IMG/VR virus record: IMGVR_UViG_3300005758_001789
Coordinates: 1-46,716 of that record
Strand: one strand, 5' to 3'
Origin: a virus
Taxonomy: Duplodnaviria; Caudoviricetes
Length of the DNA: 46,716 bases
A program made the translations under genes and the position numbers. Below the pieces are notes generated by a model. It saw only the letters and a list, made by a program, of their open reading frames with translations, searched no databases and was not told where the DNA came from. Shown in pieces: positions 17,965 to 43,255 of this stretch. Position 1 is the first letter of the stretch. Each line of letters starts with the position of its first letter.

Positions 17965-18683
17965 AAGGTGTTATTCTGGCGGGAGGAACAGGAAGTAGAC
18001 TTTATCCTATTACAAAAGTCACGAACAAGTGCCTTCTTCCCGTTGGAAAAGAACCTATGATTTTTAGAATGCTTGATATCTTTAAAAGATCAAATATTGA
18101 AGATATTATGCTAGTCACAGGTCCTGAACACATGGGTGATGTTATTTCTTTATTAGGCTCAGGTGCAGAACACAGTTGTTCAATAACATATCGTGTTCAA
18201 GATGAAGCAAATGGCATTGCTGCAGCATTAAAAATGTGTTCATCTTTTGCTAAAAGTGAAAAGTTTGCTGTTATTCTTGGTGATAACATATTTTCTGACA
18301 ATGATGAGATTGCAAAACAAATAAAACTATTTGATATGCTTCTTGAAGATTATCGTTTATTTGCTAAATCTGTTAAAGATCCTCAAAGATTTGGTGTACC
18401 TGTAATATCATCTGAAGGAAAAGTCATAGACATCATAGAAAAACCAGCTATTCCACCTTGTGACAAAGCAATAGTTGGTCTTTATTGTTACACTGATGAA
18501 GTATTTGATGTGATTAACACTTTACAACCCTCTCAAAGAGGTGAATATGAAATCAGCGAATTGAATTCATGGCTTGTAAGGAATAGACATGGATCATTAG
18601 TAGATATTAACTGTGAATGGATTGATGCAGGTACTCACGATTCTTACAAAAAAGCCAATGAAATAATTTGGGGTTGTCAATGA
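17961..18683 (+). CDS. rmlA: glucose-1-phosphate thymidylyltransferase (short form)
   Basis: MKGVILAGGTGSRLYPITK..NKCLLPV, ILGDNIF, RFGV, EKP, RGEYEI, WIDAGT. Confidence 0.9.
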   Translation: MKGVILAGGTGSRLYPITKVTNKCLLPVGKEPMIFRMLDIFKRSNIEDIMLVTGPEHMGDVISLLGSGAEHSCSITYRVQDEANGIAAALKMCSSFAKSEKFAVILGDNIFSDNDEIAKQIKLFDMLLEDYRLFAKSVKDPQRFGVPVISSEGKVIDIIEKPAIPPCDKAIVGLYCYTDEVFDVINTLQPSQRGEYEISELNSWLVRNRHGSLVDINCEWIDAGTHDSYKKANEIIWGCQ

Positions 18684-19507
18684 AAGTCATAATCGGTAAT
18701 GGAAAAGTATCCAACATCATAAAAGATAAAAATGATGTTATCCTATCTCACAAAGATATAGAGATAGCTAACCCTGAATCTGTTCTCTCTTCATTACAAA
18801 AATTCCCACCAAATACACTGGTAATAAACACCGCGGCAAAAATAAATCTAGAATGGTGTGAATCAAATAAAAACGAAGCAGAACTTGTAAATGTTTATGG
18901 TGCACTAAACATAGCCCACGCTTGTCAAACATTCAACCATCGCATGGTTCATATAAGTAGTGGTTGTATTTTTGATGGTGAAGAAACAGGTAAAGTATAT
19001 ACTGAAGAAGATAAACCTAATCCTGCTTCATGGTATGCATACACAAAAAGCAAAGCTGATCAACTTCTAACTTCGTGTGGTTATGATAAAATTCTAATTG
19101 TTAGACCTAGACAACTTATATCTCCAGTTCCAAATCCAACAAATATGTTGACCAAATTCATGTCAATTGAAGCAGGTGATTTTATAGATTCTCCCAACTC
19201 AATCACCTGCATTGAAGATATGAAAGAAATGATTGATCACCTTATTTCAAAAAGCTGTGTAGGAATCTACAACACTGTTAATGTTGGTTACATTAGTCCT
19301 TATGAAATAGCCGTTAGAATAAGGGAAGAATTCAACCCTCAGATGGTTGTTAATCGTATTTCATATCTTGATTACATCAAAAAATTAAAAGTAAAAAGAG
19401 TAAATACACTTTTGTCTGTTGACAAAATGATATCTACAGGTTATACTCCAAAAACAGCATCTAACGCTTTAGAATGGTGTTTAAAAAATTATGGAAAAAT
19501 AAAATGA
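18680..19507 (+). CDS. NDP-4-keto-6-deoxyglucose 3,5-epimerase/4-reductase-like (RmlD family, NRS/ER type)
   Basis: NLEWCESNK, SSGCIF, EEDKPN, YAYTK (YxxxK), NPTNMLTK, PNSIT, GIYN; start set at ATG 18680 (ATGA overlap). Confidence 0.8.
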   Translation: MKVIIGNGKVSNIIKDKNDVILSHKDIEIANPESVLSSLQKFPPNTLVINTAAKINLEWCESNKNEAELVNVYGALNIAHACQTFNHRMVHISSGCIFDGEETGKVYTEEDKPNPASWYAYTKSKADQLLTSCGYDKILIVRPRQLISPVPNPTNMLTKFMSIEAGDFIDSPNSITCIEDMKEMIDHLISKSCVGIYNTVNVGYISPYEIAVRIREEFNPQMVVNRISYLDYIKKLKVKRVNTLLSVDKMISTGYTPKTASNALEWCLKNYGKIK

Positions 19508-20430
19508 AGGTTATCATTACGGGTGGTGCAGGATTTATTGGAGGTCATGCCGTTCAACATTTCGTTGAGTGCGGAGATGATGTAATTAATATTGATAAAC
19601 TTACGTATGCGGCAAATGTAAGTAGAACAAAAGTGTGTCGGTTTGTTCAATCGGATATTAGAGATGTGTCTAGTTTAGACAGCGTTGTAAAAGATTTCTC
19701 CCCAGATTTTATTATTAATTTTGCAGCTGAAACGCATGTTGACAATTCAATAAAAAATTCAAAAGTTTTTATTGAATCTAATTTAGAAGGGGCCGCGGCA
19801 CTGATGGATGTAAGTGTAAAAAATGGAATTCCTCTTTGTCATATTTCTACAGATGAAGTATACGGTCCTGCTGGAATTCATCCCTTTAATGAATCAGATC
19901 AACTGTGTCCTATGAATCCTTATTCTGCGACAAAAGCCGCAGCTGATTTAATGTTAAAATCATACAGAAATACTCATGGATTAAATTATCTAATTGTTAG
20001 ACCTTCCAACAACTATGGACCAGGACAGCACCAAGAAAAATTTATTCCAAAACTTATAGATTCTATCAGATATAAAAAACTTTTTCCTTTATATGGAACA
20101 GGGAATCAAGAACGTGAATGGACATACGTTACTGATACTGTTAGTGTCATTAGAAAATTGATAATGTCCGCTGAAGTCAAGTGGAATAATGATTCTATCT
20201 ACAATGTTTCTTCAGGTATTTCTCTCAAAAACATTGAAGCCGTTCGTATTATTATAAATGAATATAACAATAAAAATATGACATCTTACAATACCACAGA
20301 CATCATAAATCATGTTGATGATAGACCTGGTCATGATAAGAAGTATTGGATTTCTTCTGATAAGCTTCAAAGGCTGCTGAATTATGAATTCATTAAATTT
20401 AAAGATGGTATTAAATCTTGCGGATTATAA
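19504..20430 (+). CDS. rmlB: dTDP-glucose 4,6-dehydratase
   Basis: TGGAGFIG, DKLTYA, FAAETHVDNSI, ISTDEVYG, PYSATKAAAD, NNYGPGQ, DRPGHD; start set at ATG 19504. Confidence 0.93.
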   Translation: MKVIITGGAGFIGGHAVQHFVECGDDVINIDKLTYAANVSRTKVCRFVQSDIRDVSSLDSVVKDFSPDFIINFAAETHVDNSIKNSKVFIESNLEGAAALMDVSVKNGIPLCHISTDEVYGPAGIHPFNESDQLCPMNPYSATKAAADLMLKSYRNTHGLNYLIVRPSNNYGPGQHQEKFIPKLIDSIRYKKLFPLYGTGNQEREWTYVTDTVSVIRKLIMSAEVKWNNDSIYNVSSGISLKNIEAVRIIINEYNNKNMTSYNTTDIINHVDDRPGHDKKYWISSDKLQRLLNYEFIKFKDGIKSCGL

Positions 20431-24446: not shown

Positions 24447-25036
24447 TACATACGATAGGAGATAGCCATTGCGGAGGAGTTACTGGTAAACCAAAAGAAG
24501 AACAAGCTTTTGCGCAGATAGACAATGTTATACCTCATTGGCTTGGACCAAAATTAATGTTCTCTATTGGAAGAGATGGATTGGATATATCTAAATTTTC
24601 AATAAATGATAATGACACTGTCATTTTTTGTTTTGGAGAAATTGATTGCAGATGTCACGTTCATAAATATAAAGAAAATTATGTTGAAGTTATTAACAAT
24701 ATTGTAGATAAATTTTTTATTACAATCAATCGCATTCAACAACAACGACCACAAATAAAAATTTGTGTATACAATGTTTTACCACCGGTAAAAAAAGGTA
24801 CAGTTCCTGAAAATCCTGACTACCCTTATTTAGGTACGGATGAAGAAAGAAAAAAATATACTCAATATATGAATCAAAAAATTAAAGAATTATGTGCTAA
24901 ACACAATTTTATATTTTTTGATGTATACAATGGTTATTGTTGTGAAAATGGATTCCTTAAGACAGAACTAAGTGACAATAACGTTCATATTAGTGATGCA
25001 ACACATGTCAGAAATTTTATTAAAGAAAATTTATGA
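24443..25036 (+). CDS. SGNH/GDSL-family esterase or acyltransferase
   Basis: IGDSH nucleophile block, FGEIDCR, C-terminal DNNVH. Confidence 0.75.
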   Translation: MIHTIGDSHCGGVTGKPKEEQAFAQIDNVIPHWLGPKLMFSIGRDGLDISKFSINDNDTVIFCFGEIDCRCHVHKYKENYVEVINNIVDKFFITINRIQQQRPQIKICVYNVLPPVKKGTVPENPDYPYLGTDEERKKYTQYMNQKIKELCAKHNFIFFDVYNGYCCENGFLKTELSDNNVHISDATHVRNFIKENL

Positions 25037-25818
25037 AATTAAACATTGAGGATATTGAAGATACGTCTAAAGGAAAAATTGGTTTATTGTTAGCACATGG
25101 ACCAACATTATCTAATGATATTAAAAGAATACATGAAGTTTCTAAAGATAAAAACAAATTTACTTTATTCACGACAGGTGATACTTGCGTTTTAGAAAAT
25201 GCAGGATATAATTTTGATTTAGATTATTGGTGTATAGCAAATCCAACATTTAGAATTCAAAATGAATATCATAAAATTAACAAATATACGAATGTCAAAT
25301 TTGTATACGCAGATACGATGGATAAAACAAAAAACGTAGATCAAATTCTAAAAGTTGATTATGTGCCATTTGATCAAAGACATTTTGGTGGAAAGCCTTG
25401 TACAGAAAATTGGAAAAATGGTGATGTTGTAAAAATACATAATGATTATTATTTTTGCTGTCACCATGAAAATCATGATTATTTTTCAAGAAAAACAATC
25501 CAAGAATACGTTAGAGACAAGTGCAAGTCTAAAGAAAGATGTACGACAGGAGACACCAGTGCATTACACATGCTGAGCACAGCAATTATCACAGGCTGTA
25601 CAGAAATTTATGTTTTTGGTGTGGATCTAAACTATAACCTTGGGTATGTTGATAAACAAACACAGAATTCAGACACATTTGATCCGTGGATACCAAGAAT
25701 TGTTGATGATTTTAGAATACTAACTCAAAGCGCTAAGAACATTGGAATAAATGTTTTTAATGTTAGCGATATATCGCCAATAAAAAGTGTTGTACCAACC
25801 AAAAGATTTGACATGTAA
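25033..25818 (+). CDS. Maf/DUF115-like protein, putative CMP-ulosonate transferase
   Basis: LLLAHGPTL (GxGPSL-like) and TGCTEIYVFGVDLNY (G.keIyl.G.D), the motif pair of Maf/GT42-like sialyltransferase folds. Confidence 0.6.
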   Translation: MKLNIEDIEDTSKGKIGLLLAHGPTLSNDIKRIHEVSKDKNKFTLFTTGDTCVLENAGYNFDLDYWCIANPTFRIQNEYHKINKYTNVKFVYADTMDKTKNVDQILKVDYVPFDQRHFGGKPCTENWKNGDVVKIHNDYYFCCHHENHDYFSRKTIQEYVRDKCKSKERCTTGDTSALHMLSTAIITGCTEIYVFGVDLNYNLGYVDKQTQNSDTFDPWIPRIVDDFRILTQSAKNIGINVFNVSDISPIKSVVPTKRFDM

Positions 25819-25819
25819 T

Positions 25820-26731
25820 ATGACAGTTTCTATTTTCATCAACAGTGCCGGTCCAAATGTAATAGAAGAAAATATTTTTGACACTTTATCTTCTTTTAAA
25901 CAAGATAGTTGCTTTAAAGAATTTTACTTTTATTATGTTGTAGATACTCAAAGCAATTATCAAAAAGTAAAAAATGCACTTGATAAGTTGAGATTTTCTA
26001 ACAGTATAGATGTAAAAATTGATAATTCTTCATGGGCAAATTGTTATAATAAATTTTATGATGAATATGGTAAAAAGTCTGATTACATTATTCTTAGCCA
26101 TGATGATTTGAAAATAGAGGCTAAAGATTTTTATCAAAAAACAAAAAAAATTATAGAAAATTCTATTGAAAACATTGGTTGGGTTACATTTACTAATACA
26201 GGTTATTACAAACAGTTCAATATTCCACTTTCAAATTCAGTAAGAGAAGGATTCTGTATCGATAGAAATAACAAATACTTATTTGAATGTCATAAATTTT
26301 CTAATAATGAACTGTTCTCTGAACACAAATTAGCTTTACCAAGCAAACCTGTTAAGTGTCATGCTCCATTTACTCATCTGGTGCTTTTTAAGCCAAGTGT
26401 ATTAGGAAAATTGGCATATTGTGAAGATTGGTCTCCGTATACTCTCTTGATAGATGAAGACTGGGGATTATCCTCACTCATGAACAACTTCACAAATGTA
26501 TGGATACCTGAAATATCTTACATACATCCTTTAAGATATTCCGAAAGATCAATAAAAGATATCAGATATTCGAGCTCAGTTCATGAAAAGTTTCTTAAAA
26601 AGTGGGATTGGAACTTTTCTTTTGGCGGCTATAGCGATGACTATATAAACAACATCAAGAAAAATTTTTCACAAACAAATCTGTGTATGTCAATTGGAAA
26701 ATTTTCTTATGATTGGCAATACATCAAATAA
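25820..26731 (+). CDS. GT-A fold glycosyltransferase-like protein
   Basis: DYIILSHDD, IDEDWGL, YIHP; start set at ATG 25820. Confidence 0.6.
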   Translation: MTVSIFINSAGPNVIEENIFDTLSSFKQDSCFKEFYFYYVVDTQSNYQKVKNALDKLRFSNSIDVKIDNSSWANCYNKFYDEYGKKSDYIILSHDDLKIEAKDFYQKTKKIIENSIENIGWVTFTNTGYYKQFNIPLSNSVREGFCIDRNNKYLFECHKFSNNELFSEHKLALPSKPVKCHAPFTHLVLFKPSVLGKLAYCEDWSPYTLLIDEDWGLSSLMNNFTNVWIPEISYIHPLRYSERSIKDIRYSSSVHEKFLKKWDWNFSFGGYSDDYINNIKKNFSQTNLCMSIGKFSYDWQYIK

Positions 26732-26755: not shown

Positions 26756-27592
26756 ATGTATTCTGAAGAACTCATTATAAAAAATGACATAAACACCATC
26801 TCTCTTATTTTAAAAGAAAAATTCAAAGAATTTAAAATACCTTTTTATCATGTCAGCCATGCTGATGTAGAAAATTTTATATCTGATAAACCTTATGTTC
26901 TATGGATCTTAGGAAACGAAGAACATAAAAATTTTGACTTTAAATTTAAAGACGAAAATTGTAAAGCTATTATAAAACCTTATCCATACATCAAAGATTA
27001 TAATCCTGTTACTCCTCCTTATTTTTATGACGATAATACAAAAAAAGTATTTATCAAAGTTGAAAAAGAAGATGAAAGAGTTTTAAATATACCTTTAGGG
27101 CAAACCAAAAATTTCATACTTCAAAAAGAAGTACAAAGAGATATACCTGTTGGTTTTTATGGGCAAAGATCAGGAATTAGAAATGCAATTCTTCCTCAAA
27201 TACCTTTTATAAAAGGCTTTACTTATGAAAAATTTGGAATAAGTAGAGAAGCAAATGAATACATCAATTTTTTGAGCAGATGTGATGTATCTTTTTGTCC
27301 AACAGGTCAAAGTCCAGAAACATATAGACTATACGAAAGTGCCCTTATGAAATGCGCACTTCTTGGCACTTCTTTACCGTATACTGAATATTACAAAGAC
27401 TGTCCAATTTATACTTTGCCTTGGCAAGAATTTAATTCAAAAAACAAAGAATTGATTTTTAATATTGTAGAATTTATTCTTGTGAACAAAGATAAACTTC
27501 AATTAGAAGCTTACAAATGGTCATCTAAATGGACAGATACAAATTTTATATGTCATTTGATTCTTAGCCACCTTAATAAGCTAAGTATTTGA
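26756..27592 (+). CDS. exostosin/GT47-like glycosyltransferase
   Basis: EYINFLSRCDVSFCPTGQSPETYRLYESALMKC resembles the exostosin motif (S.FCLCP.G...S.RLYEAL..GC). Confidence 0.65.
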   Translation: MYSEELIIKNDINTISLILKEKFKEFKIPFYHVSHADVENFISDKPYVLWILGNEEHKNFDFKFKDENCKAIIKPYPYIKDYNPVTPPYFYDDNTKKVFIKVEKEDERVLNIPLGQTKNFILQKEVQRDIPVGFYGQRSGIRNAILPQIPFIKGFTYEKFGISREANEYINFLSRCDVSFCPTGQSPETYRLYESALMKCALLGTSLPYTEYYKDCPIYTLPWQEFNSKNKELIFNIVEFILVNKDKLQLEAYKWSSKWTDTNFICHLILSHLNKLSI

Positions 27593-27594
27593 TT

Positions 27595-28275
27595 ATGAAA
27601 ATAATATGTTGTATTCCTGCTCGTGGAGGCAGCAAAGGAATTCCTAAAAAAAATATAATGAATTTTCTAGGAAAACCGTTGCTTGCATATTCTATTGAAA
27701 ACGCTCTTAAATCAAAACATCATATCGATGTTTATGTAAGTTCTGATTGTGATGAAATTCTCTCTGTTGCTAACCAGTATGGAGCGAAATCTATAAAAAG
27801 ACCTGCAGAGATATCAGGAGATTTAGATTCTTCAGAATCTGCACTTCTTCATGCAATAAACGAATTAGAACTTACCAATATTGATTTTGATATTTGTCTG
27901 TTTTTGCAAGCAACTTCTCCGCTAAGAGAACCAATAGATATTGATAACGCAATTGACAAATTATTAAAAGAAAATTTAGATTCAGTTTTCTCAGGGTCAA
28001 TATTGGAAGATTTTTTGATTTGGGAATTGAATGATGGAATACTTTCTAGCGTAAATTATGATTTTATGCAAAGAAAAAGAAGACAAGACAAAAAACATCA
28101 GTTTGTAGAAAATGGTTCAGTTTATGTTTTTAAAAAAGAAACATTCAAAAAAGCAAAAAATAGAATTCATGGAAAATTTTCTATATCTTTGATGCAAAAC
28201 TGGAAAAATTTTGAAATTGATTCGATAGAAGATCATGAAGTCTGTGAAATGATTTACAAAACAAAACTAAAATGA
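27595..28275 (+). CDS. neuA: acylneuraminate cytidylyltransferase (CMP-ulosonate synthetase)
   Basis: IPARGGSKGIPKKNI, GKPLL, VSSD, RPAEISGD, LQATSPLR, ENGSVY, EIDSIED. Confidence 0.92.
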   Translation: MKIICCIPARGGSKGIPKKNIMNFLGKPLLAYSIENALKSKHHIDVYVSSDCDEILSVANQYGAKSIKRPAEISGDLDSSESALLHAINELELTNIDFDICLFLQATSPLREPIDIDNAIDKLLKENLDSVFSGSILEDFLIWELNDGILSSVNYDFMQRKRRQDKKHQFVENGSVYVFKKETFKKAKNRIHGKFSISLMQNWKNFEIDSIEDHEVCEMIYKTKLK

Positions 28276-28886
28276 AATATCAAGATTTTGTCATCAATAA
28301 CGGAGTAATGATAGGTAAATTTGAAGAAATGTACCAGGTGTTTGATGACCCTTGGGAACAAAGCACAAGAGAAAAATTTGCTTTAGAAAAGCAAATTGCT
28401 TTACAATTGCTAAAAAAAAATAACCATAAAAGTCCCATTGAGATTGGATGCGGACATGGTCATTTTACAAATGAAATATACAAGTCTGTAGGCAACGCTG
28501 CAGGCGTCGACATATCACATTCGGCTATTCAAAAAGCGAAAAATTTATATCCTCATTGTAATTTTTATTGTTCTGACATCTCAGATATTTCAATGATTAA
28601 AACTGCTGACATCGACTGTATAATGCTTGTTGAAGTTACATGGTATGTGCTAGATAAATTAGAAAAATTCAAAAAAGATATTTCAGTTTTTAAAAATATT
28701 GGATTTTTTCATAGCCTCATGACGTATAAATCAGGACAGCAACAATACGGTAAAAATTACTTTACGAATGGTGATGAAATAAAAGAATATTTTTCTGATG
28801 TAATTGACATAACAGATTTCGGTGAAATTGGTCATAAAGATTATGATGGTGGGAAAAGAACATTTTTTTACGGAAAAATTAGATGA
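28272..28886 (+). CDS. class I SAM-dependent methyltransferase
   Basis: EIGCGHG, GVDIS; N-terminal DDPW reminiscent of NodS-like enzymes. Confidence 0.85.
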   Translation: MKYQDFVINNGVMIGKFEEMYQVFDDPWEQSTREKFALEKQIALQLLKKNNHKSPIEIGCGHGHFTNEIYKSVGNAAGVDISHSAIQKAKNLYPHCNFYCSDISDISMIKTADIDCIMLVEVTWYVLDKLEKFKKDISVFKNIGFFHSLMTYKSGQQQYGKNYFTNGDEIKEYFSDVIDITDFGEIGHKDYDGGKRTFFYGKIR

Positions 28887-29842
28887 GAAAAGTATATTAC
28901 AACGGAGATTTTGTTGACGAGTCAGAAGCAAAAATTTCCATTTATGATTCAGCCTTAATGTATGGTGATATGGTGTTTGAAATGACACGGTCTTTCAACA
29001 AGAAGCAGTTTAAACTTCGAGAACACCTTGAAAGATTGTACTGTTCTATGAAATATTTACAGATTCCTATTCCAATGTCAATTGATGAAATGGAAGAAGC
29101 TGCCAACGAAACAGTAGAAATTAATGACAAATTTTTTCAGGAAGATGATGAGCATCGTTTGATGATAGACGTAACAAGAGGGCTTCTTCCTATCTACGAA
29201 AATAATGTGCCAGGAATAAAAAGTGGGGTCAACGTTATAATAGCAGATTACCCCTTACGATGGACTGTTTCAAATTTAGGTCATTTGTACGATTGTGGAA
29301 TTAATTTGGTTTTAGTTTCTCAAAGGGTAATTCCTGCTGATCTATTGGAGCCAAAAATTAAAAACAGAAGTAGAATACACTATTTGTTAGCTAGTCAGCA
29401 AGCTGCGCAAATTGCAGGTTCTGACAATTGGCCTCTCATGCTTGACCCCGATGGATTTGTAGCAGAAGGGCCAGGAAACAATATTTTTATTGTAAAAAAT
29501 GGTAAAGTTATAACACCTGAAGGAAGAAATATCCTTAGAGGAATTAGCAGAGAGTATATTTTCCATATCTGTGAGCAATTGAACATTGAATGCATAGAAA
29601 AAAATATAAATCAATATGATGTTGTGATTGCGGATGAAGCGTTTACAACCGCAACACCATTTTGTTTATTACCTGCAACAAAATTTAATGACCAACCAAT
29701 AGGTGATGGGAAAGTTGGAACAATTACTCAAAAGATTCTAGATCAATGGAGTTCCAATGTAGGCGTAAATATTGGACAGCAAATAAAAAACTGGAAACCA
29801 AAAGACGGATCGAACATCAACCCTTACCAATTTAAAAAATGA
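28883..29842 (+). CDS. PLP fold-type IV aminotransferase (IlvE/D-amino-acid aminotransferase family)
   Basis: YGDMVFE, EHLERL, KIKNRSRIHY, AEGPGNNIF, ILRGISR, ADEAF, IGDGKVG. Confidence 0.9.
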   Translation: MRKVYYNGDFVDESEAKISIYDSALMYGDMVFEMTRSFNKKQFKLREHLERLYCSMKYLQIPIPMSIDEMEEAANETVEINDKFFQEDDEHRLMIDVTRGLLPIYENNVPGIKSGVNVIIADYPLRWTVSNLGHLYDCGINLVLVSQRVIPADLLEPKIKNRSRIHYLLASQQAAQIAGSDNWPLMLDPDGFVAEGPGNNIFIVKNGKVITPEGRNILRGISREYIFHICEQLNIECIEKNINQYDVVIADEAFTTATPFCLLPATKFNDQPIGDGKVGTITQKILDQWSSNVGVNIGQQIKNWKPKDGSNINPYQFKK

Positions 29843-30606
29843 AATTTTTAGGAATTATACAAGGTCGTCTAACTAAACCCGATGAAGGTTTTCAAATTTG
29901 TCCAACAAATTGGCAAAGAGAATTTGTTGATTTACTAACACTACGACTTACACACATTGAATGGATTATCACATCTGATAGACACACAGATAACCCCTTC
30001 TTTACAGAAGATATTTCTAATTTTCCTGTGTCTAGTATATGTTTAGACAATCTTGTTGACACAAGAATAACAGAAGAAAAATTCTTAGAAAGCAACTTGA
30101 TACCTGCATGCGAAAGAATTAGACAATTAAATTGTAAGTCTATTACAATTCCTTTATTAGAAAATTCTTCAATAGAAGACAATGACAAATATGATAGATT
30201 CTTAAGAATTTTTTCAGGTGTTACCAGAGCCTATAAAGATATCAATTTTTGTGTCGAAACTGAGTTATCTCTTAAAAAACTAATAAAACTTTGCGATATT
30301 GGTGACAATATCAAAGTAACATACGATACCGGAAATACAACTTCTTACGGTATTTCTCACGAAGATTATATTAGTGAACTTTTTTCTAGAATAGAACATG
30401 TTCATCTAAAAGATAGAACTTTTGATGCAAAAACCAAAGAACCTGGCCAAGGTGATACACCTTTCACAAGAATTTTTTCAAAATTAAAAACCAAAAATTA
30501 TGAAAAATTCTATACTTTACAAACTGCAAGGTGTACTTCAGGTGAAGAATTAAATACAATCGAAAGGCATTCAAAATTCTTAAGAAAGATATATGACGCC
30601 TCATAA
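29839..30606 (+). CDS. sugar-phosphate isomerase/epimerase (xylose-isomerase-like TIM barrel)
   Basis: GIIQGRL, IEW, IPLLE, YDTGN, HVHLKDR, GQGD. Confidence 0.8.
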   Translation: MKFLGIIQGRLTKPDEGFQICPTNWQREFVDLLTLRLTHIEWIITSDRHTDNPFFTEDISNFPVSSICLDNLVDTRITEEKFLESNLIPACERIRQLNCKSITIPLLENSSIEDNDKYDRFLRIFSGVTRAYKDINFCVETELSLKKLIKLCDIGDNIKVTYDTGNTTSYGISHEDYISELFSRIEHVHLKDRTFDAKTKEPGQGDTPFTRIFSKLKTKNYEKFYTLQTARCTSGEELNTIERHSKFLRKIYDAS

Positions 30607-31417
30607 TCAATTTGACCTTTCAGAAAAAACTGTTTTAATTACAGGAGCTGCTGGATTGTTAGGTCCTAAGCATGCCGAAGCTGTTCTTGAATTTGGCGCT
30701 TCAGTAATTTTAACAGACGTAGATGAAACCAACTTAGTTAAAACTGAAAAAACTCTTAGGGGTAAATTTGGAAATGATAAAGTTTTTAGTTTGTTGATGG
30801 ACGTTACATCTAAACATTCAATTCAAAAAGCAATGAATCAATTTCAAAAAATTGATGTGCTTATCAACAATGCAGCAAAAGATCCTAAAGTAAAAAAAGA
30901 TTCATCTTTAGGTCCTGAAACAAGATTTGAATTGATGACTGAGGAATATTGGAAAGATGGTCTAGATGCCATAATCAATGGAACATTTTTATGTTCTCAA
31001 GCATTTTGTAACAAGCTTTTATCTAAAAATCACCAAGGCGTAATTGTCAATATTGCTTCAGATTTAAGTGTGATTGCACCTGATCAAAGAATTTATAGAA
31101 ATCCGCTGTTGGCGGATGAGTTGCAAAACGTAAAACCAATTACATACTCAGCAGCAAAGTGGGCCATTGTTGGAATGACAAAATATTTGGCTACATACTT
31201 TGCGAAAAGCGGAATTAGAGTAAATTGTTTAAGCCCAACAGGGGTGTACAATAACCATCCGCAAGAATTTGTTGAAAAATTATCCAACATTATTCCTATG
31301 AATAGAATGGCTAATATCGATGAATACAAAGGAGCAATAGTTTTTCTTTGCTCGAACGCCAGCAGTTATATGACTGGTCATAACATGGTAATTGATGGTG
31401 GAAAAACAGTTTGGTGA
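30593..31417 (+). CDS. short-chain dehydrogenase/reductase (PtmA-like)
   Basis: ITGAAGLLG, DVLINNAA, NIASD, YSAAK, IRVNCLSP, YMTGHNMVIDGG. Confidence 0.9.
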   Translation: MTPHNQFDLSEKTVLITGAAGLLGPKHAEAVLEFGASVILTDVDETNLVKTEKTLRGKFGNDKVFSLLMDVTSKHSIQKAMNQFQKIDVLINNAAKDPKVKKDSSLGPETRFELMTEEYWKDGLDAIINGTFLCSQAFCNKLLSKNHQGVIVNIASDLSVIAPDQRIYRNPLLADELQNVKPITYSAAKWAIVGMTKYLATYFAKSGIRVNCLSPTGVYNNHPQEFVEKLSNIIPMNRMANIDEYKGAIVFLCSNASSYMTGHNMVIDGGKTVW

Positions 31418-31431
31418 AAGTGAGAAAAATT

Positions 31432-32265
31432 ATGTCAACTTATATCATAGCAGAAATTGGAATCAATCACAATGGCGACATCAACTTGGCAAAAGAACTA
31501 ATTGATAAAGCTAAGTCGGCCGGTTGCAATGCGGTAAAGTTTCAAAAAAGAGACATTGAAAGTGTTTATACAAAAGAAGAACTTGATGCTCCTCGTGAAA
31601 GTCCATGGGGTACAACCAATAGGCAACAAAAAGAAGGATTAGAGTTTTCTGTGGAGCAGTACAAAGAATTAGCAGCTTACACGAGATCTCTTGGAATGCA
31701 TTTTGGTGTATCTTGTTGGGATATCAATTCGATTGAATTGTTAGAAGAAAATGTAAAGTTAGATTTTCATAAAGTTGCGTCTGCACTTCTCACACATAAA
31801 CAATTTTTGCAAGCATTGAAAAAGACAGGAAAAAAGATAATTGTTTCTACAGGAATGTCATCAGATGATGAAGTTACAGCCGCAATGAAACTTTTGGGAA
31901 ATTCTGTAGAATATGTTTTAGCATGCACCAGCACGTATCCTAGTAAAGCAGAAGAGATTAATCTAAAGTATATCGATACGTTAAAAGCTTTATACCCTGA
32001 AACTAAAGTAGGATTTTCAAATCATTATAATGGTCATGATGCATGTGTTGCAGCTGTCGCACGTGGTGCAGAATGCGTTGAATTTCACATAACAAAAGAT
32101 AGATCAATGTATGGATCTGATCAATCAGCATCCATTGAAAATGTAAATGAACTTGTCAATGCCGTTAGAACAACTGAAAAAATGTTAGGAACAGGGCAAA
32201 AGATTGTTCTTGATTCTGAGAAACCAATTCTAAAAAAGCTAAGAAAAGTTTCTAATATAGTTTGA
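31432..32265 (+). CDS. neuB: N-acetylneuraminate synthase-family (NeuB) ulosonate synthase, no C-terminal SAF/AFP-like domain
   Basis: IIAEIGINHNGD, AVKFQKR, KVASA, VSTGMS, CTSTYP, GFSNH, VEFHIT, GSDQSAS; 277 aa. Confidence 0.92.
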   Translation: MSTYIIAEIGINHNGDINLAKELIDKAKSAGCNAVKFQKRDIESVYTKEELDAPRESPWGTTNRQQKEGLEFSVEQYKELAAYTRSLGMHFGVSCWDINSIELLEENVKLDFHKVASALLTHKQFLQALKKTGKKIIVSTGMSSDDEVTAAMKLLGNSVEYVLACTSTYPSKAEEINLKYIDTLKALYPETKVGFSNHYNGHDACVAAVARGAECVEFHITKDRSMYGSDQSASIENVNELVNAVRTTEKMLGTGQKIVLDSEKPILKKLRKVSNIV

Positions 32266-32277
32266 AAGATTCTAATA

Positions 32278-32631
32278 ATGACAACAGAAAACTGTATTCA
32301 TCCAAAAGGTTGGGGATATGAAAAGTGGATAGTTAATAAACCCCAATATTGTGGAAAGCTTCTATATTTCAATGCTGGAAAAAAATGTTCTTGGCATTAT
32401 CATAAAATTAAAGATGAAGTTTTTTATCTTCAATCAGGAAAAATGATTGTTAAATTTTCAGAACAAGATTCAATTGAAAATTCAAAAGAAATTATTTTAA
32501 ATGCTGGCGATTCATTTCATGTTTATGTAGGATTAAGGCATCAAATGATTGCTCTTGAAAATTCTGAGCTTTTTGAATTTTCAACGCAGCATTTTGAAGA
32601 AGATAGCTATAGATTGCAAAAGGGTGATTGA
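32278..32631 (+). CDS. cupin protein (sugar isomerase-like)
   Basis: PKGWGYE, CSWHYHKIKDEVFY, LRHQM, EFSTQH. Confidence 0.8.
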   Translation: MTTENCIHPKGWGYEKWIVNKPQYCGKLLYFNAGKKCSWHYHKIKDEVFYLQSGKMIVKFSEQDSIENSKEIILNAGDSFHVYVGLRHQMIALENSELFEFSTQHFEEDSYRLQKGD

Positions 32632-32632
32632 G

Positions 32633-32932
32633 TTGTCTAAAGTTTATTTTATTGATATAGACGAAACAATTTGTTTTTACGAAAATGTTCGAGAATATCA
32701 ATTCGCAAAACCTTACAAAGATAGAATTGATAAAATCAATAATCTTTACGATGACGGAAATTATATAGTTTATTGGACAGCAAGAGGAAGCAAAACTGGA
32801 ATTGATTGGTTTCCTCTTACTGAACAACAACTAAATTCTTGGGGAGTCAAGTATCATGAATTACGCTGTGATAAGCCGTATTATGACATTTTTGTTGACG
32901 ACAAATCAATAGATTCTATAGACAAGCTATGA
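32633..32932 (+). CDS. capless HAD-superfamily phosphatase
   Basis: FIDIDETI (DxD), [15 protein letters not shown]; start uncertain (TTG 32633 or GTG 32624). Confidence 0.8.
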
Positions 32933-33903
32933 ACAAAAGAGCATTAATAACAGGCGTTACAGGACAAGACGGTTCATATCTTACCGAATTGCTTCTTAAA
33001 AAGAATTACACAGTAATTGGAATAAAAAGAAGAACTTCAGTTTTGAATACATCGAACATTGATCATTTGTATGAAAATCCCAATCTGAAATTGGTTTATG
33101 GTAACATGAATGATGTGGGGTCGATGTATAAGGTTCTTTCAGATTATCGACCTGATGAAATTTATAACCTAGCGGCACAATCACATGTTAGAACTTCATT
33201 TGACGTACCAGAAGAAACAGTCGATGCTGTAGCCATGGGCACAATGAGATTAATGGAAGCATGCAAGAATATTGTTCCATTAGCTAAATTTTATCAAGCC
33301 TCTTCTTCAGAAATGTTTGGAGACAACGCTGAAGAACTAAAAAATGAAGACACTAAGATGATGCCTGCATCACCTTATGCAGCTGCAAAACTATTCTCAC
33401 ATAACCTAATCAGAAATTATAGAATAGGTTACGGAATGCATGCATCATCAGGCATTCTTTTTAATCATGAATCGCCTCGTAGAGGTGAAACTTTTGTTAC
33501 CAGAAAAATAACTAAAGCTGTCGCTAGAATAAAGCTTGGAAAGCAAAATGTGCTTAAGCTTGGAAATATGGACGCGTATAGAGATTGGGGTTTTGCTGGT
33601 GATTATGTTGAAGCAATGTGGTTGATGCTTCAGCAAGATACTCCTGATGACTATGTCATCGCCACAGGAGAAACTCATACGGTTCGTGAGTTTGTCGAAG
33701 CAACGTTTGAGTTAGCAGGATTAGATTATAAAAAATACATAGAAATAGATCCTAGACTGTATCGCCCTCATGAAGTTCCACACCTTTTAGGTGATTCATC
33801 TAAGGCTCAAAATAAATTAGGATGGAAACCAAAACATACGTTTAAAGACCTTGTCAAACTGATGTATGAGGCAGATTTAGAAAAAGAAACTAAACAGCAA
33901 TGA
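32929..33903 (+). CDS. gmd: GDP-mannose 4,6-dehydratase
   Basis: [62 protein letters not shown]. Confidence 0.96.
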
Positions 33904-34829
33904 AAGCAACTATATTTGGCTCATCAGGTCTTTTAGGTCAAGCTCTTCAAAAAACATGTGAAAAACATAGTTTGTATTGTCCATCATCATCTCAACTTGA
34001 CCTTAGAGGCAAAGGTTTTGGAAATTCAATAGACAACAAAGATTTATGGATCAACGCTGCTGCAAAAGTAGGAGGGGTCAAACATAACACATCCTGTATA
34101 GCAGATTTTTATAAAGAAAACATTGAGATAGGAAATAATGTTTTAGAAGAAGCAAAACAATCTAAAGTAAAAAAAGTTGTATCAATACTTTCAACATGCA
34201 TATATCCTGATGCAGAATATGTAACTTACCCCTTGACAGAAGAACAATTACATTTAGGCCCTCCGCATGTTTCTAATTTTGGTTATGCATATGCAAAAAG
34301 AATGTTAGATGTCGCATCAAGAGCTTATAGACAACAATGGAATTGTAATTTTGTCACTGTAGTTCCTAACAACTTATATGGTCCTCATGACAATTATGAT
34401 ATTAATAACGGCCATGTAATACCATCTTTAATTAGAAAGTTTTTTGAGGCCCATCTAAGAAAGCAAGACGTTGTAATTTGGGGATCAGGTAAAGCTCTTA
34501 GAGAATTCACTTTTTCTGAAGATGCCGCTAAAATCATATGGTGGGCGGTAGAAAATTACAATGAAGAAACACCTATCAACATTGGAAATACCGAAGAGAT
34601 ATCCATTAAAAATCTTGCTGGAACTATTGGAGAGATTATAGGATTTAAAGGAAAAATTGTGTTTGACACGAATCAACCTGAAGGCCAATATAGAAAACCA
34701 ACAAGTAACGCAAAACTTTTGTCAAGAGGATATACTCCTAACTACACCTCAATAGAGGTTGGTCTTACAAAAACAATTGAACATTTTATTTCAAATTATC
34801 CAAACGTTAGAGGAGTTGAAAGGCGTTGA
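33900..34829 (+). CDS. fcl: GDP-L-fucose synthase
   Basis: [47 protein letters not shown]. Confidence 0.93.
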
Positions 34830-39575: not shown

Positions 39576-41135
39576 ATGACTATATATGATCCTACATACG
39601 CTTCACAAATGGCTGAAGGTGAAGCACCTACCCATCTTCGGCATATAAAAAGTGTAGTAAAAGATCCAGCATCAACATTCATGAGAATGATTGTGCTAGA
39701 AGTTATTTCTGATCCTTACATAGTTGATGATGATAAAATTTCATATTGGAGACATGTTCTTCAAGTATCAAATTATCAATATTCTAATCTTTTGCCAAGA
39801 AATGCTATAATAGCCCAAAGAATAAGAACAGCAAGAATACCTGTCTCTCAGCCTATATTTTTATTCCCATTTTTTCCATCACATCTTTCTTTGCCTTGTA
39901 AACCTGGTGAAATGGTTTGGGCGATGTTTGAAGATCCAAATGCAAAGGAAAAAGATTTAGGTTTTTGGTTTTGTAGAGTAACAGAACCACATATCGGTGA
40001 TGATGTAAATCATTCCCATGCGGCAACCAAGCTAGATCAAACTAACGTACAATCTTTAATACAAAGAAGTTCAGGTTCACAAAAAATAATTTATGAGCTT
40101 ACTAACGGCGCCGCAACCATCAACGCAAATGGAGAAAAAGTTGTTAAAGCAGGAACAGAAATAATTAGTCCTCCTGGGGGTTTTAATGAACTTGAAGTAT
40201 TTGAACAACTAATTACAAAGACTGATTCTTCAAAATTAATGCAGTACGAATCAGTTCCTAGATTTAGAAAAAGACCAGGCGATATTGCTATTGAAGGCAG
40301 CAACAATTCTTTAATAGTTTTAGGAACAGATAGACCAGGACCTATAGCTGATTATACTTTTTTAGAAAATTTACAACCTAATGAACAAAATCCTGGTGCT
40401 ATCCCAAGTATTTCAGGCATCAATGCAACATCTAACATTACAGGTAGCGCAGGTTCTATTGACCTTGTCGTAGGAAGAGGAATTCTTTCGACCACAGGAG
40501 GAACTGTAGCTTCCACAACAAGATTAACAAGCAGCACAAAAAAACCTGAAGAAGTAAAAAAAGAAATAGCAAAATTTCCTTTTGAAGTGGTAAGTCCAAC
40601 AGAGGGAGATCCTGATTTAGTTAATGACAGAAGCAGAATACTGCTTTCACAACGAACATCAGTTGACACAAATTTTGGTATATCCAATTACAACTCTCAA
40701 TTTAAAATAGCTGATGCACCAGAAGGAGATGCATCGATAACAATAAAAACAGACAAAGTTAGAATAATAGCTAGATCTGATATATCTTTAATTGTTACCA
40801 ACTTTCAATATAATCCTACATCAATTGACAACACAACAGCTGGTTATAAAGCTGACAACGTAGCTGATCAAACAAAATGGGCATCAATTACAATTAAGAC
40901 GAATGGCGACATAGTTTTTACGCCTTCATCTGAAGGTTACATAAAATTGGGTGATGACACAGCGGATCGTGCTTTGCTATGCACGGATACACCGGCCACT
41001 TTGAATCAAGGAAAAGTTTTGCCAACAACTACAGCGCTGTCAAATACAATGGGCGGCAAATTTGGAGGAACACAGATTCCTGGACAAGGAACATGGGCCA
41101 AAAAAATATTAGTAACAGGAGCTAACAAGCCATGA
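39576..41135 (+). CDS. putative baseplate hub/spike protein (gp5/gpV-like)
   Basis: LPCKPGEMVWAMFE resembles the OB-fold P..Ge.V.v.F motif; PGDIAIEGSNNSLIVLG and beta-strand-rich C-terminus; upstream of gp25/gp6. Confidence 0.6.
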   Translation: MTIYDPTYASQMAEGEAPTHLRHIKSVVKDPASTFMRMIVLEVISDPYIVDDDKISYWRHVLQVSNYQYSNLLPRNAIIAQRIRTARIPVSQPIFLFPFFPSHLSLPCKPGEMVWAMFEDPNAKEKDLGFWFCRVTEPHIGDDVNHSHAATKLDQTNVQSLIQRSSGSQKIIYELTNGAATINANGEKVVKAGTEIISPPGGFNELEVFEQLITKTDSSKLMQYESVPRFRKRPGDIAIEGSNNSLIVLGTDRPGPIADYTFLENLQPNEQNPGAIPSISGINATSNITGSAGSIDLVVGRGILSTTGGTVASTTRLTSSTKKPEEVKKEIAKFPFEVVSPTEGDPDLVNDRSRILLSQRTSVDTNFGISNYNSQFKIADAPEGDASITIKTDKVRIIARSDISLIVTNFQYNPTSIDNTTAGYKADNVADQTKWASITIKTNGDIVFTPSSEGYIKLGDDTADRALLCTDTPATLNQGKVLPTTTALSNTMGGKFGGTQIPGQGTWAKKILVTGANKP

Positions 41136-42724
41136 GTGAAGGTTTCATGCAACATGCAGGAATTCTTGATGAAAACGAAAATCTTTCACTTACAGCAAAA
41201 AATAGGATAATTGAAAGACTAAAAAAATCTTCAGAAGAAGGATTCGCTGAGACTTCACCTTTTCCATGTGCGGCTGGATCTTCAGTTCCTAGCGCAACAG
41301 GTTTTTTACCTGAAGATATTGAAGATGAGCAAAAGTATCCTGAATTTCACGAAAATATACTAAAGACGTATGAAAAAATTGCAAAAGGTTTCAATATGAA
41401 ATCTGCGCCTAACTTACCTTTTCCTTTTTGCGATCCTTCGGCAGTCGCTTTACAATTAGGATTAGAACCTCCGGAATTTGATTTGGCAAAGCTACCAACT
41501 CTTACACCCGTTAGTTTAGCGCTAACATTAGGAATTAAAATACCTTTAATGGATGGGCTAATTGACTCTTTTAATATTCCTCCATCTTTACCAATACCAA
41601 AATTTGATTTGCCTGAAGTCGATCTAAAAATCAATTTGCCTTTTCCTTCAGAATTTTCACAAAAGTTTGAGTTTGATAATTGGGCTATAAAAACTCCCGA
41701 AATGTTTGTAAAATTTACAGGAGATTTAATAGCCAACGTTGACATACCAGGAATACTCGACCTCGCAGCAGGTAAACCTTGTGTTATTATAGATAAAGTA
41801 GTTGAATCTGCAACTTTTGGTCCTAGCGAAGGCGGTGATGTTGTAAAACAAGTCGTTGTTGCTGATCTTTCTTCTTTTACTGGTGAATGTGCTTCAATTG
41901 CAGCTGTTGGTGCCACAGTAGGATCATCTCCTGTAGGGGCTACAGGTGCTTTAGGTGAAAAATATGGTTATAAAGAAGCTCAAAAAACTGAAGGCAAGAA
42001 AAGACACTCAAAGGCAAGAAATGCAATAATAGACGCATTTCAGATACTTTACAACAGACCACCTTCTTTGATAGAAGCGCAATTTTCACAAGCAATAGCA
42101 AAACTAGAAACAGACTATGGCGGGACTGGCTCTTTTTGCGTACCTGTGGATACAGGAAAACTTGATGAAAAAGGAAGGAAAAAATGGAAACCAGGAGCTT
42201 TGATACCTGAATCAGTAGGTTGTAATAACTGGGGGAATATTCACGGCTCAGGTACTGCAGGATCTTTTACAGGATATGATTACGATGCCTTTAGTCAACC
42301 TTATGTGACCTCTTTCGCAAAGTATAGAACACCAGGAGAAGGTGCTTCAGCAATATTGAAAGAATTATATTCACAAAGAATTTATCTTTTAAAATCCTTA
42401 AAATTAAATAACAACGCTTGGAATCCTGTTTTTTTAATGAGTTCAACTTCCGTATTGGGTTCTAATGTTTTAAAAGTAAATGAGGGGAAAAAAAATGTAC
42501 CTCCTGCAAAAGACGCTGTCAATCCAAAAGGTTTAACATATTATGCCGCATTTCCTACAGCGTACTATAAAAATTTTAAAGCTGCCCTTAAAGAAATAAA
42601 TGAAGAAATTGGTGAAGATCCTACCTTTGAATTTCCAGATCCTCCGCCGGGGCTCAAATTTGCACCCCATACCGCAAAATTAATAGGAACAACTATGGAT
42701 GAAATTAATGCTGTTGTCGTATAA
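41132..42724 (+). CDS. putative virion-associated peptidoglycan hydrolase (GH73/FlgJ-like C-terminal domain)
   Basis: QAIAKLETDYG, NNWGNIH, FAKYRTPGEGA, YYAAFPTAY follow GH73 motifs (AQA.LESGWG, NNLFGIK, FR.Y.S, YATDP.Y); Pro-rich N-terminal half. Confidence 0.6.
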   Translation: MSEGFMQHAGILDENENLSLTAKNRIIERLKKSSEEGFAETSPFPCAAGSSVPSATGFLPEDIEDEQKYPEFHENILKTYEKIAKGFNMKSAPNLPFPFCDPSAVALQLGLEPPEFDLAKLPTLTPVSLALTLGIKIPLMDGLIDSFNIPPSLPIPKFDLPEVDLKINLPFPSEFSQKFEFDNWAIKTPEMFVKFTGDLIANVDIPGILDLAAGKPCVIIDKVVESATFGPSEGGDVVKQVVVADLSSFTGECASIAAVGATVGSSPVGATGALGEKYGYKEAQKTEGKKRHSKARNAIIDAFQILYNRPPSLIEAQFSQAIAKLETDYGGTGSFCVPVDTGKLDEKGRKKWKPGALIPESVGCNNWGNIHGSGTAGSFTGYDYDAFSQPYVTSFAKYRTPGEGASAILKELYSQRIYLLKSLKLNNNAWNPVFLMSSTSVLGSNVLKVNEGKKNVPPAKDAVNPKGLTYYAAFPTAYYKNFKAALKEINEEIGEDPTFEFPDPPPGLKFAPHTAKLIGTTMDEINAVVV

Positions 42725-42774
42725 CGATATAATGCAAGCAGCAATTTTATTTTTGCAATAATTAAAAGTGAAAA

Positions 42775-43242
42775 ATGGCGACTATCAACTTTAAGAGCGT
42801 TGGTGTTTCTGCCACAGCATTACAACAGAATGCTGTATCTGTCACTCCTGTACCTATAGGAATAAAAACTCCTTTGCAGTTAGGTTATGAAGATGGTTTG
42901 CTTGTTATGCACTACGATCTTGCTAATCAGTTAGCAGACAATTTAAGAAATCTTCTGCAAACCAATTGGGGTGAAAGACTTGGACAGTATTTTTTTGGAG
43001 CAAATCTAAAACCTCTTACTACTGAATTTACTTCACAGGAAACTTTTGATTCTGAAGCTGTCGTAAGAATAAAAAACGCTGTCACAACATGGATGCCATT
43101 CGTGGACCTTATCGATTTTATCTCTGAGGTTGACAGAAATGAAAATAAAAACACAGCTGTAATTAGAGTAAATATTGGATACAATATACCTGCATTAAAC
43201 GTTATAGATAGAAAAATTCAAATAGTTCTATATGTAATCTAG
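42775..43242 (+). CDS. baseplate wedge subunit, gp25/GPW-like
   Basis: QLADNLRNLLQTNWGERLGQYFFGANL, IKNAVTTWMPFV. Confidence 0.88.
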   Translation: MATINFKSVGVSATALQQNAVSVTPVPIGIKTPLQLGYEDGLLVMHYDLANQLADNLRNLLQTNWGERLGQYFFGANLKPLTTEFTSQETFDSEAVVRIKNAVTTWMPFVDLIDFISEVDRNENKNTAVIRVNIGYNIPALNVIDRKIQIVLYVI

Positions 43243-43255
43243 AAAAGAGAATAGC

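Follow-up and report, generated by a model that had tools for sequence, protein, structure and literature searches.

Gene content and recurrence of the cassette

The stretch of viral DNA described here, hereafter the window, comprises 46,716 nucleotides, is identical to the full virus record IMGVR_UViG_3300005758_001789, and is considered a piece of a large tailed phage because it carries gp25-like, baseplate wedge, late sigma factor, GroEL, ClpP, and PhoH genes. Positions 27595-32932 hold eight open reading frames (ORFs), all on the plus strand and with intergenic gaps of -14 to +14 bp, which are predicted to form a cassette for a sialic-acid-like sugar; this cassette and its probable product are the subject of the present analysis. 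The families of the eight contiguous genes had been named in an earlier sequence-only reading and were confirmed by Pfam and NCBIfam matches. In order, they are as follows:

27595..28275, plus strand: NeuA-type cytidine monophosphate (CMP)-ulosonate synthetase (PF02348, E 1.6e-24; best NCBIfam match PseF, 140 bits, cut-off 206)
28272..28886, plus strand: class I S-adenosylmethionine (SAM) methyltransferase, considered accessory (Methyltransf_31/11/25; weak BioC and NodS matches)
28883..29842, plus strand: fold-type IV pyridoxal phosphate (PLP) aminotransferase (PF01063, E 1.9e-43)
29839..30606, plus strand: xylose-isomerase-like TIM barrel, likely a keto-sugar epimerase (PF01261, E 1.1e-13)
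30593..31417, plus strand: PtmA-like short-chain dehydrogenase/reductase (SDR), likely an oxidase (PF13561; best NCBIfam match NF006619, 172 bits, cut-off 255)
31432..32265, plus strand: SAF-less NeuB, putatively a phosphoenolpyruvate (PEP)-dependent ulosonate-phosphate synthase (PF03102, E 6e-63; 277 aa)
32278..32631, plus strand: metal-binding cupin, likely an aldose-ketose phosphate isomerase (PF07883)
32633..32932, plus strand: minimal haloacid dehalogenase-type (HAD) phosphatase of 99 aa (DxD motif; weak EcbF-BcbF match only, E 7e-4); the start is most likely TTG at 32633

The window ORFs were scanned against Pfam (45 ORFs) and NCBIfam (27 ORFs), with approximately 15 short or opposite-strand ORFs set aside. 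Among the ORFs scanned, no NeuC, DegT-type aminotransferase, or hexapeptide acetyltransferase was found, the PseB and LegB cut-offs were reached by none, and the 277-residue NeuB gave no match to the SAF domain; the absences listed in the sequence-only reading (SAF, NeuC, Pse/Leg genes, DegT, and hexapeptide) hold at this scope. Since the record is a fragment of a virus genome, genes absent from the window could sit elsewhere in that genome.

The cassette recurs across phages, bacteria, and archaea. NeuB-centred scans covered 61 viral loci and the best 80 of 362 cellular loci. The viral loci (tblastn) include homologues of the aminotransferase in 15, the TIM barrel in 22, the cupin in 23, the HAD in 26, and the methyltransferase in 2 cases; the best 80 cellular loci include the aminotransferase in 8, the TIM barrel in 38, and the cupin in none. 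Later counts used 71 or 76 deduplicated viral loci and 77, 80, or 87 cellular loci, and 40 NeuB loci from one bacterial class served as canonical controls. One viral relative (L020) retains all eight genes in nearly identical order, and the arrangement is therefore not attributable to chance. For aminotransferase-centred loci, a viral scan with a single sequence gave none, and an alignment-based scan gave 42 (not deduplicated). Among 50,697 phage records, three matched NeuB (two unannotated environmental, one bacterial contig), and none was an isolated phage carrying the cassette.

SAF-less NeuB and its probable phosphorylated substrate

The window NeuB scores below cut-off against both NeuB_NnaB (TIGR03569; 230 of 400 bits) and PseI (156 of 340 bits). 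A quick tree, which contains no characterised synthase, including those for the 9-phosphate of Kdn (ketodeoxynonulosonic acid), and which like its alignment omits E. coli NeuB, places it in a 27-member viral clade (Shimodaira-Hasegawa-like approximate likelihood ratio test, 99) inside a large SAF-less group. SAF-less NeuB proteins are described in a phylogenetic study as whole environmental branches, their chemistry being left open there (PMC8208679).

Residues K39, R40, R55, K67, and W96 reach 99-100% conservation across 146 SAF-less relatives versus 0-16% in 37 canonical SAF-bearing NeuB. A human phospho-substrate enzyme is reported to use a loop region for its phosphorylated substrate (PMC8208679), and we infer that the basic residues K39, R40, R55, and K67 map to this loop. 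Furthermore, a phosphatase lies near NeuB in 59/77 cellular and 35/71 viral loci and in 0/40 canonical control loci; in the cellular SAF-less loci it is of either the KdsC type (51/77) or the mini-HAD type (8/77), with no locus carrying both. The nearly invariant basic residues and the nearby phosphatases together therefore point to a phosphorylated NeuB substrate, following the logic of the characterised Kdn route, in which NeuB, a phosphatase, and a CMP synthetase are described as acting together (PMC6200933). The phosphorylated-aldose route through NeuB, HAD, and NeuA that the sequence-only reading had proposed is supported on these grounds, and the product of NeuB probably loses its terminal phosphate to the mini-HAD. 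The window HAD gave no match to NF058599 (KdsC-type Kdn-9-phosphate phosphatase) and resembles EcbF-BcbF weakly, and the KdsC-type enzymes of cellular relatives also score below the NF058599 cut-off. NeuC is nearby in 0/71 viral and 6/77 cellular SAF-less NeuB loci, and the TIM barrel, both aminotransferase classes, and KdsC were found in 0/40 canonical NeuB loci.

Three side observations concern NeuB. Plasmids of cultured Azospirillum and Methylomagnum (L145, NZ_CP029359, and L146, NZ_AP019784) both carry SAF-less NeuB, partnered by a HAD phosphatase and SDR/TIM genes or by transketolase, SDR, and an aminotransferase of class III. Another cultured organism, Paramagnetospirillum caucaseum SO-1 (L073), has SAF-less NeuB together with a GmhA-like protein, a TIM barrel, an SDR, and a class III aminotransferase. 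In L012, L013, L016, L021, and L077, the main cassette has nearby a further NeuB-like gene, degenerate and of 240-270 aa, paired with a short SDR; the one such gene scanned scored approximately 88 bits to NeuB_NnaB.

Cupin, GmhA, and the aldose phosphate

The cupin contains the invariant residues H40, H42, K45, E47, and H88, with a His/His/Glu/His metal set, and weakly resembles D-lyxose, L-ribose, and mannose-6-phosphate isomerases. It has the cupin fold and not the sugar isomerase (SIS) fold, which lowers its membership of the GmhA family and leaves intact the claim that it works like GmhA. In 76 deduplicated viral NeuB loci, a set that includes loci obtained by searching for cupin or GmhA themselves, 29 carry the cupin, 11 a GmhA-like protein, none both, and 36 neither. 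Within the window's own NeuB clade, the cupin (10 of 27) and GmhA (8 of 27) are never found together (p=0.011). Both occupy the same slot, as shown by SDR-cupin-NeuB-HAD in L020 and SDR-GmhA-NeuB-HAD in L018 and L166, and the L018 GmhA aligns to a solved GmhA over its full length (E 9e-42).

The cupin is also found in HldE-like cassettes. Among 80 cupin-centred viral loci, 45 carry an HldE-like kinase or adenylyltransferase, 18 NeuB, and none GmhA; 45 kinase-centred loci that also carry an adenylyltransferase include the cupin in 37 and GmhA in none, a count that is biased because the query was built from cupin-linked kinases. A kinase and adenylyltransferase cassette with GmhA in the place of the cupin occurs in L375. 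The complete P-SSM2 and S-SM2 genomes contain the kinase, adenylyltransferase, mini-HAD, and cupin, and lack GmhA. In the same genomes (L431, P-SSM2 PSSM2_311 and PSSM2_312; L430, S-SM2 SSM2_207, SSM2_210, and SSM2_211), genes labelled "phosphoheptose isomerase" belong to the mini-HAD family, and the cupins bear the label "cysteine dioxygenase" or "nucleotidyltransferase."

Among cellular loci, 32/77 with a SAF-less NeuB have GmhA no more than 8 kb from it, versus 1/40 canonical loci (p=2e-6), and HldE genes are in the flank of 1 of those 32. A fusion of a KdsC-type phosphatase with GmhA adjoins NeuB in seven loci. Transketolase, transaldolase, GmhA, KdsC, and NeuB are consecutive in two methanogen loci, and no HldE kinase was found in the two methanogen genomes, which are incomplete. 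Similarly, no PfkB or GHMP kinase was found in five viral records with GmhA and NeuB, and no RfaE2 in the three of them tested. As a separate observation, lone GmhA is common in viruses (L360-L372, L376-L383): 80 GmhA-centred loci include NeuB in 17 and a PfkB-type kinase within 7 kb in 8.

The cupin-GmhA slot swaps, the GmhA-less HldE cassettes, and the GmhA-KdsC fusions together suggest that NeuB likely condenses heptose-7-phosphate with PEP, the cupin likely working as a stand-in for GmhA. If both isomerases make D-glycero-D-manno-heptose-7-phosphate, whose aldehyde end matches that of mannose-6-phosphate, a Kdn-type condensation would, by known chemistry, give ten carbons. The octulosonate or nonulosonate expected in the sequence-only reading is accordingly displaced by a predicted C10 product; of its proposal that the cupin and the epimerase supply the aldose phosphate, the cupin part is recast as a stand-in for GmhA and the TIM barrel part becomes the less likely reading, as the barrel travels with the SDR.

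Several points weigh against this heptose-based reading. The fold matches of the cupin are generic, including phosphomannose isomerase and CapF; in fold searches, CapF, D-lyxose isomerase, phosphomannose isomerase, and KdgF fall within approximately 2 Z units and their functions are not separated. When the count is limited to the 62 viral loci obtained independently of either gene, GmhA occurs in 5, the cupin in 21, both in 0, and neither in 36 (p=0.12), so that exclusivity alone is not proven, and the loci in the exclusivity counts are related to one another. Neither isomerase is nearby in 36/76 viral and 53/87 cellular rows, and GmhA accompanies 0/5 SAF-less NeuB of this clade in an unselected class-wide sample. 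The SIS protein beside the closest NeuB to that of the window (L001, 71%) is divergent and without the conserved Gln, no GmhA-like, kinase, or adenylyltransferase neighbour scanned in viral loci reaches a curated cut-off, and a cupin and weak SIS proteins occur together in 1 of the 49 whole records searched (a search that covered 50 of 75 loci chosen). An HldE-type kinase is present elsewhere in 3/5 genomes bearing the KdsC-GmhA fusion, and the tree contains no characterised Kdn-9-phosphate synthase. As for the product, possible C10 ulosonic acids are reported as only rare in a mass-spectrometry survey (PMC8157484). Furthermore, the C10 compound of Magnetospirillum gryphiswaldense, for which mass-spectrometric evidence of CMP-activated C10 ulosonic acids is described (PMC8157484; 10.64898/2026.04.20.719630), bears two N-acetyl groups and has a marker equivalent to Leg/Pse (legionaminic or pseudaminic acid) plus CH2, which would not match the predicted product.

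A nine-carbon version, in which the cupin is a phosphomannose isomerase, NeuB forms Kdn-9-phosphate, and CMP-Kdn is converted to an amino, epimerised, methylated Kdn, is the main rival, although unlikely. It would follow the characterised Kdn route of NeuB, phosphatase, and CMP synthetase (PMC6200933), and is consistent with the weak match of the cupin to archaeal mannose-6-phosphate isomerase, with the GMD and Fcl genes, which depend on GDP (guanosine diphosphate)-mannose, lying directly downstream, and with the absence of an isomerase near many SAF-less NeuB loci. By contrast, it leaves unexplained the cupin in GmhA-less HldE-like cassettes, the cupin/GmhA swap beside NeuB, and the fusion of GmhA with a phosphatase.

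Proposed oxidation, epimerisation, and amination

The SDR translation contains GxxGxxG and YxxxK motifs. The TIM barrel is accompanied by a PtmA-like SDR in 25 viral and 35 cellular loci and stands without it in 0 viral and 3 cellular loci; of 151 loci examined, 63 have a TIM barrel, and 60 of these have the SDR. A third slot of the TIM loci is filled by an aminotransferase, a Gfo/Idh/MocA enzyme, or an extra SDR (24/25 viral, 37/38 cellular), and this co-occurrence reads as oxidation and epimerisation followed by either amination or reduction. A structure search with the TIM barrel gave no clear solved relative, and a cellular homologue best matches L-ribulose-5-phosphate 3-epimerase models, below cut-off. 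Because it is tied to the SDR and not to the isomerase, the TIM barrel more likely epimerises a keto intermediate than supplies an aldose phosphate.

The window aminotransferase falls below the ilvE_I (186 of 246 bits) and Dat (124 of 277 bits) cut-offs, and the only matches of its model were transaminases of amino acids and amines. In an alignment with archaeal branched-chain aminotransferase (BCAT), K160 falls in the region of the PLP lysine, where the window motif is KNRSRIH versus KSLNYLN in archaeal BCAT, and K158, K160, R162, R164, and H166 are invariant in 26 sequences. The 42 viral aminotransferase-centred loci contain CMP synthetase in all 42, NeuB in 36, and NeuC in none; an SDR is present in 24, a radical SAM/SPASM protein in 16, both in none, and neither in 2. 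A further count of 41 viral aminotransferase loci gave SDR in 32 or radical SAM in 9, never both. The radical SAM/SPASM protein that stands in the place of the SDR (for example, L010:7157-7942) has BtrN as its best solved relative (E 5.5e-11); BtrN oxidises a sugar alcohol in partnership with an aminotransferase. Moreover, class IV and class III aminotransferases occur in 30 and 32 of 163 NeuB rows, respectively, and never together (p=7e-4; p=0.025 for NeuB-centred rows only). A glyoxalase/vicinal oxygen chelate protein (L006:10407-10835 and relatives) accompanies the class III aminotransferase in 30/31 loci and the class IV enzyme in none. Oxidation followed by transamination is supported by the alternation of the class IV enzyme with either a reductase or an aminotransferase of class III; the corresponding proposal of the sequence-only reading is thus supported by co-occurrence and by the oxidase swaps.

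The methyltransferase, a possible O- or N-methylating enzyme, is considered accessory because window-type homologues are rare (3/71 viral, 1/80 cellular loci); the place of a regular pathway step given to it in the sequence-only reading is reduced to this role.

Tailoring could alternatively precede NeuB, with a UlaE-like TIM barrel acting on a ketose phosphate, the SDR and aminotransferase aminating the precursor, and NeuB condensing an amino-aldose phosphate. This is improbable: the best match of the cellular TIM homologue to L-ribulose-5-phosphate 3-epimerase models and the several invariant basic residues of the aminotransferase, which would suit a phosphorylated substrate, favour it, whereas the TIM barrel is tied to the SDR and not to the isomerase, the NeuB tree is not sorted by tailoring (class III, class IV, and aminotransferase-free loci interleave in one clade), and the SDR-type enzymes of Acinetobacter are reported to act after nonulosonate formation (PMC12053666, PMC5595891). 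It is still more doubtful that the product of the class IV enzyme is a small amino acid or amine, such as a D-amino acid, which is attached later as a substituent, the ring and side chain being epimerised only. The closest solved relatives of the enzyme are indeed amino-acid and amine transaminases, and fold type I is the class described for nucleotide-sugar aminotransferases (10.1101/2021.09.04.459008); however, Pfam and NCBIfam scans found no ligase or acyltransferase in the cassette, the enzyme swaps with a class III aminotransferase or reductase, a sugar-type oxidase nearly always adjoins it, and its scores lie below the IlvE and Dat cut-offs. Finally, that the phage merely boosts N-acetylneuraminic acid (Neu5Ac), Leg, or Pse from host precursors, with the accessory genes as unrelated cargo, is very improbable: the record is a fragment, whose precursor genes could be elsewhere, and NeuC lies near 6/77 cellular loci, but NeuB is SAF-less and below the NeuB_NnaB and PseI cut-offs, NeuC is near 0/71 viral loci, and the TIM barrel, both aminotransferases, and KdsC occur in 0/40 canonical NeuB loci.

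Proposed pathway

An aminated ulosonate made via a phospho-aldose route is, summed over the variants, very probable. That the eight phage genes build a CMP-activated, amine-bearing ulosonic acid whose backbone of ten carbons derives from heptose and is tailored once NeuB has acted is given an even chance; this pathway is drawn from observed gene content, families, and co-occurrence, from which we infer all substrates. Briefly, the cupin would isomerise host sedoheptulose-7-phosphate to D-glycero-D-manno-heptose-7-phosphate in the manner of GmhA, and the SAF-less NeuB would condense this with PEP to 3-deoxy-dec-2-ulosonate-10-phosphate, as Kdn-9-phosphate synthase does with mannose-6-phosphate. 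The mini-HAD would take off the phosphate and NeuA would form the CMP sugar. The SDR would then oxidise a side-chain hydroxyl, the TIM barrel would epimerise the adjacent carbon, and the class IV aminotransferase would convert the ketone to an amine; the order of CMP activation and this tailoring and the choice of the aminated carbon are likewise conjectural. A methyl group may be added by the accessory methyltransferase, and the sugar would be moved by a PF01973 protein (see below) onto a phage-built glycan, with the virion or host surface as its most likely, presumed, acceptor. The broader proposal, that large phages, together with many bacteria and archaea, make a C10 amino "deculosonic" acid through a cupin feeding heptose-7-phosphate to NeuB, class IV amination, and Maf-like transfer to the virion, is put forward tentatively, at somewhat less than an even chance.

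The cassette is real, conserved, and, as far as searched, uncharacterised: no description of it was found in the open-access literature, subscription papers being largely outside the search, and no C10 chemical names were found among the open-access matches listed. Papers on large phages mention glycosyltransferases, and term look-ups in them found no NeuB or heptose genes (PMC12619734, 10.64898/2026.10.24.761521). Possible C10 ulosonic acids are reported by mass spectrometry, with genes left unassigned in the portions available (PMC8157484; SugarBase 10.64898/2026.04.20.719630). If true, the proposal would add a class of sialic-acid-like sugars with a new carbon length, assign a product to the large SAF-less NeuB clade, and bring in a second, non-homologous family of heptose-phosphate isomerases, a sugar aminotransferase of fold type IV, and a phage that encodes a complete sialic-acid-like pathway.

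Candidate transferase and surrounding cluster

Two neighbouring features lie outside the cassette, the first of them missed in the sequence-only reading:

25033..25818, plus strand: PF01973 (MptE-like) protein, candidate CMP-ulosonate transferase (PF01973, E 2e-7, below cut-off)
32929..34829, plus strand: GMD and Fcl-like genes of GDP-fucose type (gmd above cut-off, 446/415 bits; Fcl 227/500)

The first scores 31.4 bits against the PF01973 cut-off of 34.6, and its Atlas clusters are viral PF01973. Among 71 deduplicated viral SAF-less NeuB loci, a homologue is present in 24 and a GT29-like protein in 9 others, with both in none; the protein gave no match in the PDB and none to its GT29-like counterpart. 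PF01973 is associated with Maf-type ulosonate transferases, and the protein is a candidate Maf/PF01973-like CMP-ulosonate transferase. Two ORFs immediately precede NeuA: 25787-26731, which has no family match and has homologues in 3/61 viral NeuB loci, and 26756-27592, which has a weak RXYLT1_C glycosyltransferase-like match.

The cassette is embedded in a one-strand glycosylation cluster at 16039-38176, with glycosyltransferases (GT) of families GT2 (three), GT11, GT10, and GT4 (two), rmlA/D/B, GMD, Fcl, FkbM, and SGNH. The GMD/Fcl-like genes are in the same operon as the cassette and serve a separate sugar. The rmlA-, rmlD-, and rmlB-like genes are at 17961-20430, and no rmlC was found in the window; the candidate explanation that the cupin is the missing RmlC was rejected, as 61 viral NeuB loci contain RmlA in 1, RmlD in 0, and the cupin in 23. 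A tail/baseplate block (39576-46626) with gp25-like, wedge subunit, and 3-4 unassigned large ORFs directly follows the cluster, and a GT4 pair, a PD-(D/E)XK nuclease, and a sigma factor border the cluster in several relatives. A promoter/terminator scan was at chance level (98 found, 97 expected).

Comparison with known systems

Phages are reported to encode side-chain-epimerising enzymes, namely epaAB (PMC5595891, PMC12053666, PMC9676051). The window resembles these phage-borne genes and the elaABC and aciABCD/aciAECD modules of Acinetobacter in joining a CMP synthetase to side-chain-remodelling SDR-type oxidoreductases (same sources). The Acinetobacter modules, as described there, have host Leg or Pse as their substrate and close with a reduction, whereas the window encodes the synthase too and its last slot is an aminotransferase. 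The amination logic resembles that of Shewanella Kdo8N (8-amino-8-deoxy-Kdo), for which KdnB and KdnA are reported to oxidise a ulosonate hydroxyl and then transaminate it (PMC5125639, 10.1101/2021.09.04.459008). In that system, KdnB is described as an iron-containing alcohol dehydrogenase and KdnA as a fold type I enzyme, with a KdsA-type synthase; the window instead has an SDR, a fold type IV enzyme (PF01063), an extra epimerase, and a NeuB-type synthase.

The likeness to the adenosine diphosphate (ADP)-heptose pathway (GmhA, HldE, GmhB, HldD) lies in the cupin, which takes the GmhA slot next to NeuB as well as in split-HldE cassettes. Unlike that pathway, the cupin is not of the SIS fold and no heptose kinase or adenylyltransferase was found in the window, and the heptose phosphate would therefore go to NeuB.

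The Pse pathway is not matched in the window: PseI reaches 156/340 and PseF 140/206 bits, no PseB is above cut-off, and no DegT was found. The CMP-Kdn pathway of Bacteroides thetaiotaomicron and Prymnesium parvum is described as proceeding from PEP and an aldose phosphate through dephosphorylation to CMP activation without NeuC (PMC6200933), a scheme that the window resembles. Its gene set (synthase, phosphatase, and CMP synthetase, without NeuC) is complete in the window, which differs from it in a NeuB without SAF, a 99-aa mini-HAD, a heptose-type isomerase slot, and four tailoring enzymes. The Kdn-9-phosphate synthase of Bacteroides carries SAF. Judged from its genes, the cassette falls outside the Neu5Ac/Leg, Pse, and KdnAB pathways and appears to work like CMP-Kdn synthesis joined to a Kdo8N-like amination.

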